The position numbers were made by a program, and so were the translations under genes. A stretch of 64,000 bases of DNA from Candidatus Marinacidobacterales bacterium (GTDB lineage Bacteria > Acidobacteriota > Vicinamibacteria > Marinacidobacterales > SMYC01): contig CBDCYI010000011.1 in NCBI GenBank assembly GCA_965224085.1, positions 576,001-640,000 of the forward strand, written 5' to 3'. Under the pieces are notes generated by a model that saw only the letters and a program-made list of their open reading frames with translations, was not told where the DNA came from and did no database searches. Below are positions 48,648 through 54,733 of this stretch, in pieces (within the stretch, counting starts at the first letter, position 1; the number at the start of each line of letters is the position of its first letter).

Positions 48648-50458
48648 TCATGAGAGCCATAATTGCCATCGCACTATTATCGGCTGCCGCAGCCGCGCAA
48701 GACGACGCGAAGGACGATGCTTGGGACGTGGGCGCCACTTTCGGCCCCACGAGCCCGCTCGAGTTCGAGACCACCGAAGGTACGTGGATGAACCTCGACA
48801 TCAGCCCCGACGGTACCCAGATCGTCTTCGACCTTCTCGGAGATCTCTACGTGATGCCCGTTTTGGGCGGCACGGCGACGCGGCTGACCGAGGGCGCCGC
48901 GTTCGACATGCAGCCGCGTTTTTCCCCGAACGGAGAGAGCATTGCCTTTGCGAGCGACCGCGACGGGGCGACGAATCTATGGATCGTGGACCGGGACGGC
49001 GCGAACCCGCGCCAGGTTTCGAAAGAGAAGAAGTGGTTCATCAACAGCCCGACGTGGTCGGCGGACGGTGACTATCTGTTCGCGCGCCATCATTTCGTCG
49101 CCCAGCGTTCGCTCGGCGCGGGAGAGATCTGGCTCTACCACATCCGCGGCTCCGGCGGTCTTCAAGTCACCGAGAAGGTCACGTTCCAGAAGGACGCGGG
49201 CGAGCCTTCGATCTCACGCGACGGCCGCTATCTTTATTACAGCAAGGACGTCACACCGAGCCCGAAATTCGAGTACAACAAGGATCCGAACGGAGCCATC
49301 TACGCCATCGTGCGGCGCGACCTCGCGACCGGCGACGAGCGCCGCGTGGTGGACATCCAGGGAGGTGCTATGAGCCCTGCCATCTCTCCCGACGGCAAAC
49401 ATCTCGCCTTCATCCGCCGCATCCGACTTCAGAGTCATCTCTACCTCCAGAACATGGAGACGGGCGAGCAGTGGTCGATCTTCGACGGCCTCGACAAAGA
49501 CCTACAAGAAGCCTGGGCCATCCACGGGCTCTACCCGCAATACAGTTGGACCCCTGACGGGAAGAACATTTTCATATGGCGGCACGGCAAGATCTGGCGC
49601 GTGGACGTCGAGGCACAAAAGGGCGCGGAGGTGCCCTTTCGCGCCCGGGTCGAGCAGACGATCCACGACGCTTTGCGCTTTCCTCAAAGAGTCTTCGAGC
49701 CCGAGTTTCCCGTGCGGATGCTGCGCCACGTTGCGACCTCTTCGGACGGTGGGGAAGTCGTCTATAGCGCGCTCGGGCGTCTCTATCGCAAAGTCTTGCC
49801 CGACGGCGCGCCAGCTCGCCTGACGGAGGACGAGCACATCGAGTACGCGCCTTCTTATTCTCCGGACAAAAACACGATTGTCTACGCGACGTGGTCCGAT
49901 GACGAGAAAGGGAGAATCCGCACCATCGCGCCTGACGGCTCCGGAGCGCGTGAGCTCGTCTCGGTGCGTGGGCACTACACCGACCCTTCGTTCTCGCCGG
50001 ATGGGAAGCACATTGTCTATCGCCGGACGACGGGCGACTCGCTTCGCGGCGAGACCTTTGGGACGGATCCCGGTATCTACGTCGTTTCATTGGATGGAGT
50101 GGATGGCGGTGAGCCGTCTCTCGTTCGCGAGTCGGGTGTAGCGCCCCGTTTCGACCACACGGGCGAGCGCGTCTATTTCGCCGAGCGGCGTGACGATAAG
50201 ACCCTGCTCGCGAGCGTCGAGCTCGACGGTAGCGAAGAGATCGTCCATCTGGAATCCGAGAACGCCACTCAGATCGTGCCGTCCCCCGACGGGCGTTGGG
50301 TGGCTTTCGTCGAGCGGTTCAAAGTGTTCGTAGCGCCTTTTCCTCGCACGGGCCGTACGGTGAGTATCGGGCCGGAAGGATCCGCGATCCCCATCAAAGA
50401 AGTCTCGGGCGATATGGACTCCCCACGCCGGATCAAGAGAAAACGTTCTTCGTAATAG

Positions 50459-51716
50459 TCATCCGCGATTCGCTTTTTTTGTGGGCCACCGGGAGGGGTC
50501 GTAAAGGGTTCCTTGTCGAAGCATCGCAATGGCGATGGGGAGAATGCGGTCCATGACGCCTCTGAGAGCTCTGGCATGGCTGTGGCCTCTGTCACGAAGC
50601 CGGTCGTAGTGTTCTTTGAAGTGGGGGTCGTGCAAAACGGCAGTGCGTGCCCAATGGTGGAGAGCATTATTGAGGGGCAAAGAGCGAGCTCTCCTCATCA
50701 GGATCGTTGGTCGCAACTGACCGCGCTTGCCGCTCTTTTTTGTGACAGGAGCAATGCCGCCGAGAGTCCTGAAGGCGTTGAGATTACGGAGCCGAATGGG
50801 GTCGTGGGCATAGCAGAGCACGGAGGCGAGCACGTAAGCACCGACGCCGGGCAAAGAGGCAAGAATGGCAGGGTCGGAGCAATGCTCGTCGGTTAGTGCT
50901 TGCACGCGCTTGAACCACTTCTCGAGATGCTGGTCGGAGGCACGACGATGTTGTCGAACGAGGAGCAACTGCTGGAGTAGTAGTTGGAGATGCTCGGCGG
51001 TAGCTTGAGTGGTTGCGGTTGCGACCCGGAGAGGTTTTTGTTTGAGGGTATCGAGGATCTTCTCGGGTTTTAGACGTCGGATGCGGTGTTTTTGAGCGAG
51101 GGTCTCAATGGAGTGGCGGCTAAGAGGGTTGGGGCTGGATTCGAAGAAGAGTTTTAGGAGCTCGCAGAAAAAAGCGTCGAGAGCCTTGTCCTTTGGCGCG
51201 AGCGAGACGAGGTGAGGCCAGCAACGAGTAAGGAGTTCTCGGATCTGCGAGCTGAGGGCCACATGGTTTTTGACGAGTTGGTCGCGGGTACTCAGCAACC
51301 CGCGCATAGCGAGGATCTCCGTAGGTGGGAGATGCAAGCGCTGAAAGCGGTGGCCGTCGGTTCTGAGCGAATCGGCGAGAACGAAGGCGTCTCGCCGATC
51401 ATCCTTGGCGCCGCTCATAGAATGCCGGTCGCGGAAACGGTCGACCTGCTTGGGATTGATGGAGAAAATGGCGATGCCGTGGTCAAGAAAGAGCTCGACG
51501 ACGGCCCCATGAGGTTTTTCGATCGCCACCGCGATGCGCTCGGTATCTTGCGAGGTCTCTTCCAAAAGCCAGTCGATGGTTCCCGATAGTCCTTCGCGGC
51601 TATGGGGGGAAGCCTCTCTCCGCCAAGAAGTTACCTTTGGCATCGACCACACTGGCCAAGTGAAGCCATTGACCCAGGTCGATACCGACGAAGAAGTCGT
51701 ATTTGAGTTGATTCAT
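50459..51716 (-). CDS. IS110-family DEDD recombinase/transposase (1-nt frameshift at the G-run ~51605)
   Basis: FVGIDLG (D), AIEKP (E), KDDRRDA (D,D), SLPGVG, and GIAPVTKKSGK (conserved Ser). Confidence 0.92.
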
Positions 51717-51734
51717 GGAAGAACTCATTTCCGC

Positions 51735-51900
51735 CAGCGCATGTGATGTTTCATCGGCCCCTGTACTGGCGCTCGAAGCGCAACTCCCCACTGGATGTCC
51801 ATCACAAAAGAATTGCCGGCACGCATGTCCATTCCTGGCGCTAGGAGCGCAGGGCGACGTATGGCGTTGCCGGCAAGCTGCTGACGAAATCGAAAATAGT
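51735..51900 (-). ncRNA. Bridge-RNA-like ncRNA with target-binding and donor-binding loops (RNA boundaries approximate)
   Basis: Two parallel stem/internal-loop/GCGC-hairpin units whose loop segments match the element ends (9/9 and 7/7) and the insertion site (6/7 and 5/7). Confidence 0.85.
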
Positions 51901-51923
51901 CCAAGCTCATCGTGATATTTGCT

Positions 51924-52340
51924 CTACCATGGCAATCGGAGTTGTCGCGCGATGCCACGAGTTCGTGCTCGGTTTTTTCTCGGTAGTTTCGGGCGAAGCA
52001 CGTCCGAGAGTTTTTCTCGAATGTAAAGAACATAAGGCGGGTCTAGATATTGACTTTGCACTTCCTGGAGCACAGGTGAAAAATAACGAAGGGAGCGAAT
52101 GGGCTGCAGTGGCTCCTCATGTTCTTGTAGCTCCCTACGAGCGCAACCCAGAAGTAGGGCACACTCGAATTCGTGTAACGGGACTCCTTGGCGGTAGAGC
52201 TGCGTCGCGATGAAGCGGTCGTCGCGCCGTGGCCGCTCAGGTGTGTTCGGAATGGAAAGATAGAGGTCCAAAATCGTCCGGACGTAATTGTTTTCTGTCA
52301 GAGCATCGCTCGTGAGCGGTTCATTACCCAGCTTCGACAT
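51924..52340 (-). CDS. IS-borne hypothetical helical protein (138 aa)
   Basis: Intact ORF overlapping the stop of the upstream gene; YVRTILDLYL...GVPL...ALLLG..RR...IRSLRYFSPVLQE. Confidence 0.75.
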   Translation of the reverse strand: MSKLGNEPLTSDALTENNYVRTILDLYLSIPNTPERPRRDDRFIATQLYRQGVPLHEFECALLLGCARRELQEHEEPLQPIRSLRYFSPVLQEVQSQYLDPPYVLYIREKLSDVLRPKLPRKNRARTRGIARQLRLPW

Positions 52341-52738
52341 CCTTTAGCCTCCCGCGTCGGCCGCAGATACAGCATTTGGCATATCTGATACTGTCAATCT
52401 TCGTTTTCATTGAATGAGCCATCGGGCCACTAGCTTGAATTTCACGAACTCCTAGACTGCCAGAATTACTGGGGTGAATGAACCCTTGCTCCGTCACTAT
52501 TTTCGCCGCCTGGCGTAGACGATAATTCTGTTGCCGAGCCGCGTGGAGTTTTCGTGAGTTGAAACCTTTCTGGTAATTTCGGTTATTTTCGCGCTGGTTC
52601 TTATCGCCGGGTTTCGTCACGGCAGGTTGGACCGCAGTAGCACTGTCCCTGGTAACATGACTTGCAGATGAAGAAAGGCATCCCACAGCTTTTGTTGCGG
52701 CAGAAAAGCCGGAGAAGAACGACAGGTTTGGTGGCCAT
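52324..52738 (-). CDS. IS-borne Cys-rich, putative Zn-binding basic protein (frameshift at ~52603)
   Basis: MATK...FCRNKSC..FFICKSCYQGQCYCGPTC RDETRR-[shift]-KNQRENNRNYQ...HAARQQNYR...CCICGRRG. Confidence 0.7.
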
Positions 52739-52903
52739 TCGGAACTCAGCAAAGTGCTGGACGATGGCCGCCCGGATGTGAGAGGCTAGCTTCAACTTGT
52801 AGTGGAGCGCCTCCTCCGGGGGCCATCCAAACATCAGAACCCCGGTCGTTTGTAGCGGCTGGGGCTCACTATTGTCGCACAGCAGGTTCACCCTCTTCTT
52901 GCC

Positions 52904-52975
52904 GGCGCGAGACGATCTGACTGACTCGCGCCAAAGGCGCGAGAGGATGCTGGCCTCGCGCCAGAGGCGCGGGAT
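52904..52975. repeat. Three ~30-nt-period repeats, two forming CTCGCGCC-N3-GGCGCG hairpins
   Basis: ctcgcgccaaaggcgcgag (52925-43), ctcgcgccagaggcgcggg (52955-73), and half-unit ggcgcgagacgat (52904-16). Confidence 0.75.
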
Positions 52976-54445
52976 GAGGCCTTGTACACAGACATTTCCT
53001 ACCGACTCTTCCCGCAACACACGCTTTCGCTGCACTGATGCTTCGGCAAGCGTACAGGGCTACTACGTCCATTGGTCCGGTGACAGCGGGAAGATCCACT
53101 GGAGTCTCGGACCGGAGCTCTACACGCTTTCGCTCGACCCGACCCTCGAGCTCGAGGGCGAAGCGGCGCGGACTGCAATCGGTTTCATGACCGCGAGCGA
53201 CCAGCCGTCCGGGAGCATCACGCTCGTCGGTGCCCGCATCGTCACGATGGACGGGGACCGTGTGATCGAGAACGGGACCGTGGTCGTGGACGAGAACCGC
53301 ATCACGGCGGTGGGACCGTCCGATTCCGTGTCGGTGCCGTCCGGCGCCACGCGCATCGATGTCTCTGGCCGCACGATCATTCCGGGCATCGTGGACGTCC
53401 ACGCTCACGTCGGAAGCGAGAGCGGGGGTATCCTCTCGGAGCAAAACTGGAGATTCGTCGCGAACGTGGCCTATGGCGTGACCACCTCGCACGATCCTTC
53501 GAACGGTACGGAGATGGTGTTCACCAACTCCGAGATGATCCGCGCGGGCAAGAAGCTCGGCCCGAGACTCTACTCGACCGGCACGATTCTCTACGGCGCC
53601 GAAACCCCGTTCAAAGCCGTCATCGAGAAATACGACGACGCGCTCGCGCATCTCCGGCGCCTGAAGGCTGTGGGTGCCTTCTCCGTCAAGAGCTACAACC
53701 AGCAGCGTCGTGATGTACGCCAGATGATCATCAAAGCGGCGCGCGAGCTCGAGATGATGGTCGTCCCCGAAGGCGGCTCGCTTCTCTATATGGACGAGAC
53801 CTTCGTCTATGACGGCCATACCGGGCTCGAGCATTCGCTCCCCGTGCCGGTTTTATACGACGACGTCGTGAACTTGTACGGGAGAAGTCGTACCGGCTAC
53901 ACGCCCACGCTCATCGTCGGCTATGGCGGTCTCTCGGGCGAGAATTACTGGTACCAGCACGACGAAGTTTGGGCGAACGAGAACCTGCTCCAGTACACGC
54001 CGCGAGAGATCGTGGATGCGCGCGCACGTCGCCGCACGATGGCGCCCGAGGACGATTTCAACCATGTCCTGATCTCGGAAGGCGCGAAGAAGATCCTCGA
54101 CGCGGGAGGGCTCGTCCAGCTCGGCGCCCACGGACAGCTGCAAGGTCTCGGTGCGCACTGGGAGCTCTGGATGCTCGAGCAAGGCGGGATGACGGAGCTC
54201 GAAGCGCTCCGATCCGCCACGCTCATGGGTGCGGAATATATCGGCCTCGACGGCGAGCTCGGCTCGATCGAGGAAGGCAAGCTCGCCGACCTCGTCGTGC
54301 TCGGCAAAAACCCACTCGAGAACATCCGGAACAGCGAGAGCGTTCAGATGGTCATGCTCAACGGCCGGCTCTACGACGCGGCAACGATGAGCGAGATCGG
54401 GAACCATCCCAAGGAGCGAAAGCCGTTCTACTGGCAGTCTGCGCG

Positions 54446-54733
54446 ATGAGCCTGCTCATGCTTCTGCTGCTTGCTCAGTTCAACTACGATGCGAAAGAGG
54501 CGCTCGCTGTGGACGCGTCGGAGGTCGAGCTCGTCGAGGGCGCGCGCTTGCAGGAAATCTCCTATGCGAGTCCCAAAGGCGGGCGCGTCCCCGGATATTT
54601 GATCGCGCCTCAAGGCGCCGGACCGCATGCGGGCATCGTGTTCGTTCACTGGGGCCAGGGAAACCGTACCGAGTTCGTCGCGGCCACCCAGGCCGCGATG
54701 AGGCGTATCGCTTCCGACGCTACCCAGCCATAG
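54446..54733 (+). pseudogene. Alpha/beta hydrolase N-terminal fragment
   Basis: ISYASPKGGRVPGYLIAPQGAGPHAGIVFVHWGQG, ending before any nucleophile motif. Confidence 0.7.

Follow-up and report, generated by a model that had tools for sequence, protein, structure and literature searches.

In IS621, the left target guide (LTG) and the left donor guide (LDG) of the bridge RNA pair with the bottom strand, and the right target guide (RTG) and the right donor guide (RDG) pair with the top strand, as set out in the available sections of PMC11208158. Cargo-bearing, "expanded" IS110 loci of up to about 100 kb are described by Hu et al. (bioRxiv 10.64898/2026.08.14.744561); in the available parts of that preprint their cargo is variable and mostly plasmid-derived or adaptive, and the legend of Figure 4A gives, as one mode, the gain of DNA downstream of the transposase module; the text reports that the mobility of the whole unit falls with size. 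We analyzed an IS110-family insertion sequence (IS) at positions 50418–53056, minus strand, of a stretch of 64,000 nucleotides (nt) from a Candidatus Marinacidobacterales genome (contig CBDCYI010000011.1 of assembly GCA_965224085.1, positions 576,001–640,000), hereafter called the window. The element is very likely a bridge-RNA-guided IS of a 2.53–2.64-kb lineage that carries an IS21-derived cassette in its left end and targets a kinase loop.

Like IS621 and the IS110 group as described in the available sections of PMC11208158, the element combines DEDD/RuvC-like and Tnp20 domains, has no inverted repeats, and is flanked at both ends by a core dinucleotide. As in IS621 (PMC11208158, same sections), a two-loop bridge RNA is placed 5' of the recombinase, each loop having a stem, a same-sense guide, a hairpin, and an antisense guide; also as in IS621 (same source and sections), putative promoter halves are placed on the right and left ends. 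Positions 50418–53056 constitute a single element, whose minus strand carries, in this order, the left end, a leader, two open reading frames (ORF1 and ORF2), a two-loop bridge RNA, the DEDD recombinase, and a 41-bp right end:

53057..53058, minus strand: left CC core dinucleotide; CC is found at the left end in 4/4 full copies and in 19/19 loci with a located left end.
52950..53056, minus strand: left-end tip, TGTACGCTTGCC..., of IS110 ancestry; contains the -10-like half of the putative junction promoter and an additional leader hairpin.
52739..52949, minus strand: structured leader, with the hairpin GAGCCCCAG...CCGGGGTTC followed by a T-rich run; common to IS21-type elements.
52324..52738, minus strand: ORF1, Cys-rich Zn-ribbon and basic helical hairpin; 137 amino acids in intact copies, frameshifted here at 52602/52603.
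51924..52340, minus strand: ORF2, five-helix protein of 138 amino acids; intact in the window copy, its start overlapping the ORF1 stop by 17 nt.
51813..51876, minus strand: target-binding loop (TBL) of the bridge RNA.
51742..51806, minus strand: donor-binding loop (DBL) of the bridge RNA.
50459..51716, minus strand: IS110-family DEDD recombinase; 418 amino acids in intact copies, frameshifted here by an extra C at 51609.
50418..50458, minus strand: right end of 41 bp, ending in GTGGGGAGT; -35-like TTGATC at 50436–50431.
50416..50417, minus strand: right CC core dinucleotide.
48650..54449, plus strand: host gene encoding a PD40 beta-propeller and an amidohydrolase (Pfam), split at ...VSGDM/GYYVHW...

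The left end begins with TGTACG at 53056, and 318 nt of leader extend from there to the ORF1 ATG at 52738; the gap of 207 nt between ORF2 and the recombinase is non-coding. An inverted-repeat pair with arms at both termini was not found in the window element. Removal of the element together with one CC restores the PD40/amidohydrolase frame (48650–50455 and 52872–54449, plus strand).

The window's genome (G000; 6.87 Mb, 12 contigs) contains three further full copies, each of 2637 bp and at an unrelated site, and about eight diverged or partial copies, the diverged ones showing 77–91% identity; element sizes in the lineage are 2527–2637 bp. The three other full copies are mutually identical, and the ends are identical in all four, each flanked by CC. 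The window copy differs from the other three by a single-nucleotide polymorphism at 52839, by both an inserted base pair and a substitution at 52603/52602, and by the extra C at 51609. ORF1 (137 amino acids from MATKPVV), ORF2 (138 amino acids), and the recombinase (418 amino acids) are all intact in the three other copies, and the version without the two extra bases is present in contigs of two public runs. Since both ORF1 and the recombinase are frameshifted, the window copy is probably non-autonomous. The change at 51609 sits in a run of C, and the window copy is either decaying or an assembly with homopolymer errors. Contigs of public runs also show two joints on the window, skipping 74 and 1029 bases.

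The intact recombinase (P0003) matches PF01548 (N-terminal DEDD/RuvC-like domain; E = 2.8e-31, residues 10–167) and, at the C-terminus, the Tnp20 domain PF02371 (E = 1.1e-11, residues 284–370). The match to NCBIfam NF033542, "IS110 family RNA-guided transposase", is at 1.1e-47 and 162.9 bits (cutoff 140). In 401 genomes sampled from the phylum, the identity of the closest other recombinases does not exceed 44%.

Both loops of the bridge RNA consist of a same-sense 5' guide, a distal hairpin, and an antisense 3' guide. In the TBL, the basal stem TTGCCGGCAACGC/GCGTGCCGGCAA (51876–51864 with 51824–51813) encloses the 5' loop ATACGTCGCCC with the LTG and core (51862–51852), the distal hairpin GCGC-N5-GCGC (51850–51838), and the 3' loop AGGAATGG with the RTG (51836–51829). 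In the DBL, the stem TGTGATG/CATCACA (51806–51800 with 51748–51742) encloses a 5' loop with GTGGGGAGT (LDG, 51791–51783), the distal hairpin GCGCTTCGAGCGC (51781–51769), and a 3' loop with GTACAGG (RDG, 51766–51760). The four helices are paired in 97.5% of cells, compared to 17–51% with the partners slid (20 distinct sequences), and compensatory change is seen in four helix pairs, e.g., UA eleven times and CG eight times in the basal stem. A permissive Rfam scan of 50000–53500 gave no match. ACGCCAT, a candidate for the left target guide, was rejected, as the family alignment places it in the basal stem, the guide being the next AC.TC.CCC.

The donor guides point to both outer ends of the element. 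The LDG GTGGGGAGT is identical to the final 9 nt of the right end, and the RDG GTACAGG, when reverse-complemented, reads CC followed by the first 5 nt (TGTAC) of the left end, about 1.18 kb upstream. The bridge-RNA pattern recognized 25 elements (22 metagenome loci, the Marinacidobacterales locus L018, and two G000 copies). In all 19 loci with a find, the reverse complement of the element's own RDG 7-mer occurs exactly once upstream, 1089–1183 nt before the bridge RNA, and the left end so located is always preceded by a target-like flank; in the other six of the 25 the upstream sequence is too short to hold the left end. The same single upstream RDG match is seen in L086 and L088, which have a hairpin variant missed by the pattern. 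The LDG 9-mer with CC is found 14–42 nt after the recombinase stop in 15 loci and also in L086 and L088; it is missed in the diverged C5 copy (one mismatch), in L089 (one mismatch and a missing base), and in L096 (aberrant right end). In L084, L085, L086, and L088 the RDG is GTATAGG, paired with the left end CCTATAC (TATAC in place of TGTAC); in L086 and L088 the LDG is GTGGGAAGT, and the right end is GTGGGAAGT in L086 and ATGGGAAGT in L088. The variant guides and the variant ends of these four loci are compensatory, although the elements are related and represent few evolutionary events. Since the donor guides match the right-end tip and the far left-end tip, the whole 2.6 kb, both ORFs included, is the recombination unit set by the bridge RNA.

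Much of the initial annotation, made from the DNA letters without database searches, stands after this analysis. The element boundaries, the gene order, and all coordinates hold base for base; what had been called a bridge-RNA-like region is a real one, with two loops, guides matching the ends, and paired helices; and the accessory genes do lie inside the mobile unit, as the match of the donor guides to both outer ends had indicated. The proposed frameshift correction of ORF1 is borne out by the three other copies, intact at 52603/52602, and the recombinase frameshift at 51609 is an addition to that annotation. The suggested search for other copies yielded the three full and about eight diverged or partial ones described above.

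The LTG has the same sense as the left flank and CC, and the RTG is the reverse complement of CC and ATTCC. The flanks of the elements are uniform, reading ggtagacctcgc, then CC, then atNccNcc, and the opposite strand reads GGC GGC ATG GGC GAG GTC TAC. Element-free sites translate to ...IGxGGMGEVYRAxDTKLxR... (GxGGMGEVYxAxD-like) in 12 of the 13 loci with both ends mapped; the 13th, L079, lacks the right-flank sequence. The translated sites show the insertion site to be the set of codons for GGMGEVY, the glycine-rich loop of Hanks-type Ser/Thr kinases, the element being placed on the strand opposite to the kinase. Most element ends in G000 adjoin kinase loops, and in contigs of other public runs kinase-like sequence takes over at the breakpoints 50414 and 53059. 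The window copy occupies an off-consensus site in a non-kinase gene (GDM/GYYV), where the guides share 4/9 left-flank and 5/7 right-flank positions. The guides fit the constant positions of the kinase-loop site, with 114 of 162 LTG and 82 of 126 RTG positions matching the flanks across loci, and the variable guide positions are mostly third codon positions. Covariation of guides and flanks, suggested by two G000 subfamilies, does not generalize across loci.

Homologs of ORF1 and ORF2 occur in two main gene orders, as seen in 49 metagenome loci collected by a scan with the ORF2 alignment. Type A, with ORF1-ORF2, about 200 nt, and the IS110 recombinase, is found in 23 of the 49; in five more, ORF1 and ORF2 are adjacent and the contig ends before the recombinase. 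The same order is seen in locus L018 of a Marinacidobacterales metagenome-assembled genome (MAG) and in the window's genome, and is kept down to 45% ORF2 identity and 58% recombinase identity. In type B, with the order ORF1-IstA-IstB-ORF2, IstB is followed by ORF2 in 20 of the 49 loci, ten of these 20 having ORF1 before IstA, and IstB followed by ORF2 is also seen in 19 genome loci (Acidobacteriota, Gemmatimonadota, Acidimicrobiia). One locus, L108, is left unassigned. Type B belongs to the IS21 family, as identified by Pfam (rve, Mu-transposase C-terminal domain, IstB_IS21) and by TGT... inverted repeats; copies of 3.36–3.39 kb (in G385 and G015) comprise the left inverted repeat (IRL), leader, ORF1, IstA, IstB, ORF2, and the right inverted repeat, an order also seen in additional IS21-type loci. 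Remoter IS21 elements have the ORF2 domain without ORF1. A protein of 501 amino acids (L063:4923–6428, minus strand) combines IstB_IS21 (residues 9–243) with a C-terminal ORF2-like domain (residues 361–465; hhalign probability 99.1%, E = 1.2e-18), and this natural fusion points to IstB as the likely working partner of ORF2 in IS21 elements.

IstA and IstB had no match in the 28 IS110-type metagenome loci or in L018. The window element contains no further long reading frame, and Pfam matches are confined to its recombinase, no search there being aimed at IstA/IstB. IS21-type inverted repeats (TGT...) with a 4–8-bp target duplication are not found at the window element and are present in the IS21-type relatives. 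Matches to ORF2 are found in 22 of the 401 genomes sampled from the phylum (a tally that includes the unpublished G049), usually in many copies, the IS110-linked form being seen only in the window's genome. In Bryobacterales MAGs (L020, L021, L022, L023), ORF2 homologs lie in a repeated unit of 665–780 bp, with no IstA/IstB nearby and with adjacent IS3-like and IS4-like genes; this unit may be a third context of the ORF2 domain.

The cassette of leader, ORF1, and ORF2 occupies about 1.05 kb between the left-end tip and the bridge RNA. Compact IS110 relatives of 1.66–1.8 kb in G088, G260, G349, and G017, with recombinases 34–44% identical, have the CC core, the TGTAC left tip, the GTGGGAAGT right tip, and the DBL scaffold in common with the window element; their left end lies about 60–250 nt before the bridge RNA, and both ORFs are absent. 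No alignment with IS21 inverted repeats is seen over the first ~100 nt of the type A left end, and the reading of the left-end tip as an IS21 IRL is ruled out both by this comparison and by the compact relatives with the same tip. The ORF2 tree was built for 58 distinct domain sequences (identical rows and matches of <70 profile positions dropped); in it, 25 of the 26 type A rows group in a single clade (support 98/96) that lies among the type B rows. Because the homologs flank istA-istB, and because compact IS110 relatives have the same ends, the cassette would be of IS21 origin and derived in the IS110 lineage. We infer that a compact IS110 ancestor acquired an IS21-derived cassette in its left end, in one event or perhaps two, and kept it; istAB and the IS21 repeats would either have been lost from the cassette or never have come with it.

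About 210 nt of the leader upstream of ORF1 align between IS110-type and IS21-type loci. The stretch upstream of MATKPVV is non-coding, as the "protein" there changes frame in some homologs while the nucleotides are conserved. The 11-bp leader hairpin shows compensatory changes at seven pairs; its homolog in L024 scores as terminator-like, and terminator-like matches in a scan of the linear element are not above shuffles. What had appeared as hairpin repeats in the leader is a duplicated GCGCC-N4-GGCGC hairpin. This hairpin (CATC..CGCGCC-N4-GGCGCG, window 52905–52975) is doubled in the clade of the window element (REF, L018, L074, and L075) and single in other type A elements.

ORF1 has eight invariant or near-invariant Cys and 11 relatives of similar length; its sequences are of two types, CRNKSCGMPFF... 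and CRN--CGEAFY.... For ORF2, 72 relatives were found in a word-indexed search, and 1394 clusters (50% identity) at E <= 0.001 in an exhaustive search; none of the relatives has a Pfam domain, and the alignment contains the family motifs YV..VL.LY.SLP...RPRRDDR and PIRSLRYF.PV. Pfam and NCBIfam searches with ORF1 and ORF2 gave noise only (best UL15A, E = 0.11, and PRK00420, E = 0.0078, far below cutoff). AlphaFold models of ORF2 (predicted local distance difference test, pLDDT, 78.8) and ORF1 (pLDDT 73.2) had no PDB match at E <= 0.001 by Foldseek, and ESM Atlas matches for both were unnamed "hypothetical protein" clusters only. The prediction of an ORF1 and ORF2 complex scored 0.00, which is no verdict and is counted neither way.

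The ratio of nonsynonymous to synonymous substitution rates (dN/dS) was estimated for 13 pairs of type A elements. It is 0.26–0.73 for ORF1 (largest dS 1.5), 0.18–0.56 for ORF2 (largest dS 1.7), and 0.12–0.28 for the recombinase (largest dS 0.74). ORF1 is full length in 13 and ORF2 in all 14 of 14 type A elements; the diverged C5 copy has a truncated ORF1 and the window copy a frameshifted one. Substitution patterns show the cassette to be conserved and under purifying selection. ORF1 and the recombinase have often diverged to different degrees within the same pair of elements (dS 0.68 vs. 0.12 for REF and L074), which suggests recombination between elements; the type A elements are mosaics.

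Several single loci depart from the common layout. In the diverged G000 copy at C11:764573–766949 (L007), the first ~290 nt are replaced by an inverted piece of another copy's right end, an arrangement suggesting that elements have recombined or that one copy has inserted into another. The G000 copy at C4:1482107–1483630 (L010) begins precisely with the ORF2 stop codon and comprises the bridge RNA, the recombinase, and the right end. It was considered as a compact form with its own left end and rejected, since it is flanked on the left by an unrelated, wrongly oriented kinase fragment and on the right by a normal target; it is read as a truncated, rearranged copy, the breakpoint coinciding with the cassette boundary. 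At L096:1703–1760 the right end stops after the TTGAC box and is followed by an uninterrupted kinase-loop target, an aberrant right junction. Distant IS110 copies in G325 (L134, L142, L150) and in G332 (L133, L141) are alike over >2.9 kb, to the ends of the fetched loci, and may be other cargo-bearing IS110 elements.

By the known mechanism of the IS110 family, the element would excise as a circle joined at CC and insert at the CC of the target. TTGA(C/T) lies 13–14 nt from the right-end tip and 15–16 nt before the left-end T(G/A)TAC(G/T) in 10 of 10 distinct junctions, and joining of the two halves would recreate a sigma-70-like promoter, as in IS621. Transcription from this promoter would have to cross the leader, ORF1, and ORF2 before arriving at the bridge RNA and the recombinase. 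Within this explanation, a transposase-independent regulatory role of the cassette is possible, at somewhat below even chances, because the cassette serves two unrelated transposases and comes first after the junction in both. It would then consist of a leader attenuator, a nucleic-acid-binding Zn-ribbon protein, and a helical partner normally working with IstB, and might gate expression from the junction promoter as a regulatory or attenuating device or as a host- or nucleic-acid-binding one. A cofactor of RNA-guided strand exchange is a less likely role.

Several results weigh against this explanation or its parts. At the variable LTG positions, 31 of 72 match the flanks, where shuffling gave a mean of 27.3 and at least as many matches in 809 of 5000 trials, and at the variable RTG positions 11 of 36 match, where shuffling gave a mean of 9.1 and at least as many in 1398 of 5000; in the absence of significant guide–flank covariation, recognition of the target rests on the constant positions. 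A sigma-70 consensus scan of the linear element returned 0 promoters, and no circle or tandem junction was seen in four public runs (contigs only), nor was a transcript end or activity observed; the cover of element parts in RNA-library contigs cannot show transcription. The regulatory role is without direct support, there being no family, fold, or partner match for ORF1 or ORF2. The ORF2 tree is rooted at the midpoint only, and L102 (type A, on a long branch in an unresolved part) falls outside the main ORF2 clade, so that a single acquisition is not shown. Finally, ORF1 is broken in the C5 and window copies, and individual copies thus do lose it.

The initial annotation had favored, as one option, an expanded RNA-guided system with dedicated accessory proteins. 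ORF1 and ORF2 would then act for the recombinase in target capture, circle maintenance, or strand exchange. The conserved order of ORF1, ORF2, bridge RNA, and recombinase, purifying selection on both ORFs, and their placement in the same putative junction-promoter transcript as the bridge RNA are all compatible with such a multi-protein bridge system. The order itself, the tabulation of which had been proposed, recurs in the 23 metagenome loci and in one other genome (L018). We nevertheless consider this option unlikely, since the same proteins are found in IS21-type elements with a DDE transposase and no bridge RNA (homologs flanking istA-istB in 20/49 metagenome and 19 genome loci), L063 encodes an IstB-ORF2 fusion, neither ORF is present in relatives that have the same ends and bridge-RNA scaffold, and the discordant divergence of ORF1 and the recombinase (REF vs. 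L074) indicates modules that seem to recombine freely; evidence of either ORF protein acting in recombination was not obtained. Nor does the RNA appear to have been displaced inward, as had been supposed: a cassette of IS21 ancestry would instead have been inserted between the left tip and the bridge RNA, the relatives with the same ends being compact. The other option offered initially, natural cargo carriage, is literally true. As to whether the two ORFs come from a separate nested element with its own ends, their origin is indeed a separate family (IS21), while here they have no ends of their own. If the cassette were a passive IS21 remnant that landed in an IS110 left end, lost istAB and the inverted repeats, and now hitch-hikes, its IS21 ancestry, the broken ORF1 of the window and C5 copies, and the readiness of IS110 elements to gather cargo (bioRxiv 10.64898/2026.08.14.744561, available parts) would be accounted for; the full-length ORF1 (13/14) and ORF2 (14/14), dN/dS well below 1 at dS up to 1.1–1.7, compensatory changes that maintain the leader hairpin, and the tidy 17-nt ORF1/ORF2 overlap left by the istAB deletion make this quite improbable.

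Two further explanations concern the ends and the RNA. Mobilization of the 2.6-kb unit in trans, by IS21 IstA/IstB working on IS21-type ends and with the IS110 gene as a passenger, would likewise fit the IS21 ancestry of the cassette; it is already contradicted by the structure of the ends, which have no IS21-like inverted repeats and a 2-bp core duplication rather than one of 4–8 bp. The ends moreover match the donor guides and the flanks the target guides, and 10 of 10 ORF2 matches in G000 are at element DNA, none looking IS21-linked (IstA/IstB were not searched for in G000), which leaves this explanation with a very low probability. It is also extremely unlikely that the functional bridge RNA lies in the 320-nt left-end leader, as in IS621, with the region upstream of the recombinase being of another kind. 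At the nucleotide level the leader shows strong conservation, and it has GC-rich hairpins, as such an RNA might; yet it is common to IS21-type elements, which need no bridge RNA, and, its own tip aside, has only 6-nt matches to the donor junction and targets, none of guide length. It is the region upstream of the recombinase that holds the right-end 9-mer and the reverse complement of CC+TGTAC and is homologous to the bridge RNA of the compact relatives. The explanation we prefer thus remains a bridge-RNA-guided IS110-family element with an IS21-derived cassette in its left end and a kinase-loop target.

Taken one step further, and only tentatively, a portable cassette of structured leader or attenuator, Zn-ribbon, and helical protein may serve two machines of unrelated mechanism, the IS21 DDE transposase IstA with the AAA+ ATPase IstB as its partner and the IS110 bridge-RNA recombinase, and a bridge RNA may be aimable at a coding motif, the kinase glycine loop offering dozens of paralogous landing sites per genome. 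If so, the cassette would perform a general task, independent of the transposase, for elements with a promoter-forming junction or circle, e.g., gating to the excised state or recruitment of host factors, and would represent a new class of IS accessory module. The lineage provides a natural, conserved case of a left donor end and a bridge RNA held >1 kb apart by coding DNA, which bears on the transcription and processing of bridge RNAs and on the room for cargo within an engineered left end. A common uncharacterized accessory cassette connects two unrelated transposon families, and the ORF2 family, with ~1400 clusters at 50% identity and no Pfam model, has in the IstB-ORF2 fusion a testable partner. 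For IS110, a conserved coding motif in a family of paralogous genes, reached by RNA-guided homing, would be, as far as our searches reach, a new choice of target, and it implies recurrent knock-out of Ser/Thr kinases in these bacteria.

An IS110 element with cargo is no longer new in itself, as the 2026 preprint (10.64898/2026.08.14.744561) reports such elements. A literature search for IS110 with protein kinase, glycine-rich loop, or IS21/chimeric found no description of an element like this one, and on extra genes in the IS21 family nothing pertinent to ORF1/ORF2 accessory genes was found by title or abstract; the words IS21, kinase, and Acidobacteri are absent from the main text of 10.64898/2026.08.14.744561, this check covering the main text and not the supplements. 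As far as these searches reach, the cross-family cassette and the homing to a coding motif are unreported.

Compared to IS621 as described in the available sections of PMC11208158, the core of the window element is CC rather than CT; its lineage has ~1.05 kb with two genes between the left tip and the bridge RNA, giving 2.5–2.6 kb instead of 1.28 kb; and its target is a protein-coding motif. Because the cassette lies between the left tip and the RNA, any junction promoter would be >1.1 kb from the bridge RNA. With the expanded IS110 loci (10.64898/2026.08.14.744561, available parts) the element shares a size of >2 kb and extra genes within the boundaries defined by the bridge RNA; unlike in those loci, there is here one specific small cassette, located upstream of the bridge RNA, shared with IS21, and conserved and selected across the whole lineage, and the whole unit moves. 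The leader with ORF1, and ORF2, are like those of the IS21 family, a subgroup of which is the likely source of the cassette, whereas the window element has neither IS21 inverted repeats nor an IS21-type duplication, and IstA/IstB are not among its ORFs. Similar to ISPpu9 of the IS110 family (PMC12288879, available sections), an extra module travels with the element; in ISPpu9, however, this module is the Ssr9 small RNA gene downstream of the transposase, with modular circles and REP sequences as the target, while in the window element it consists of two protein genes and a leader, upstream of the bridge RNA.

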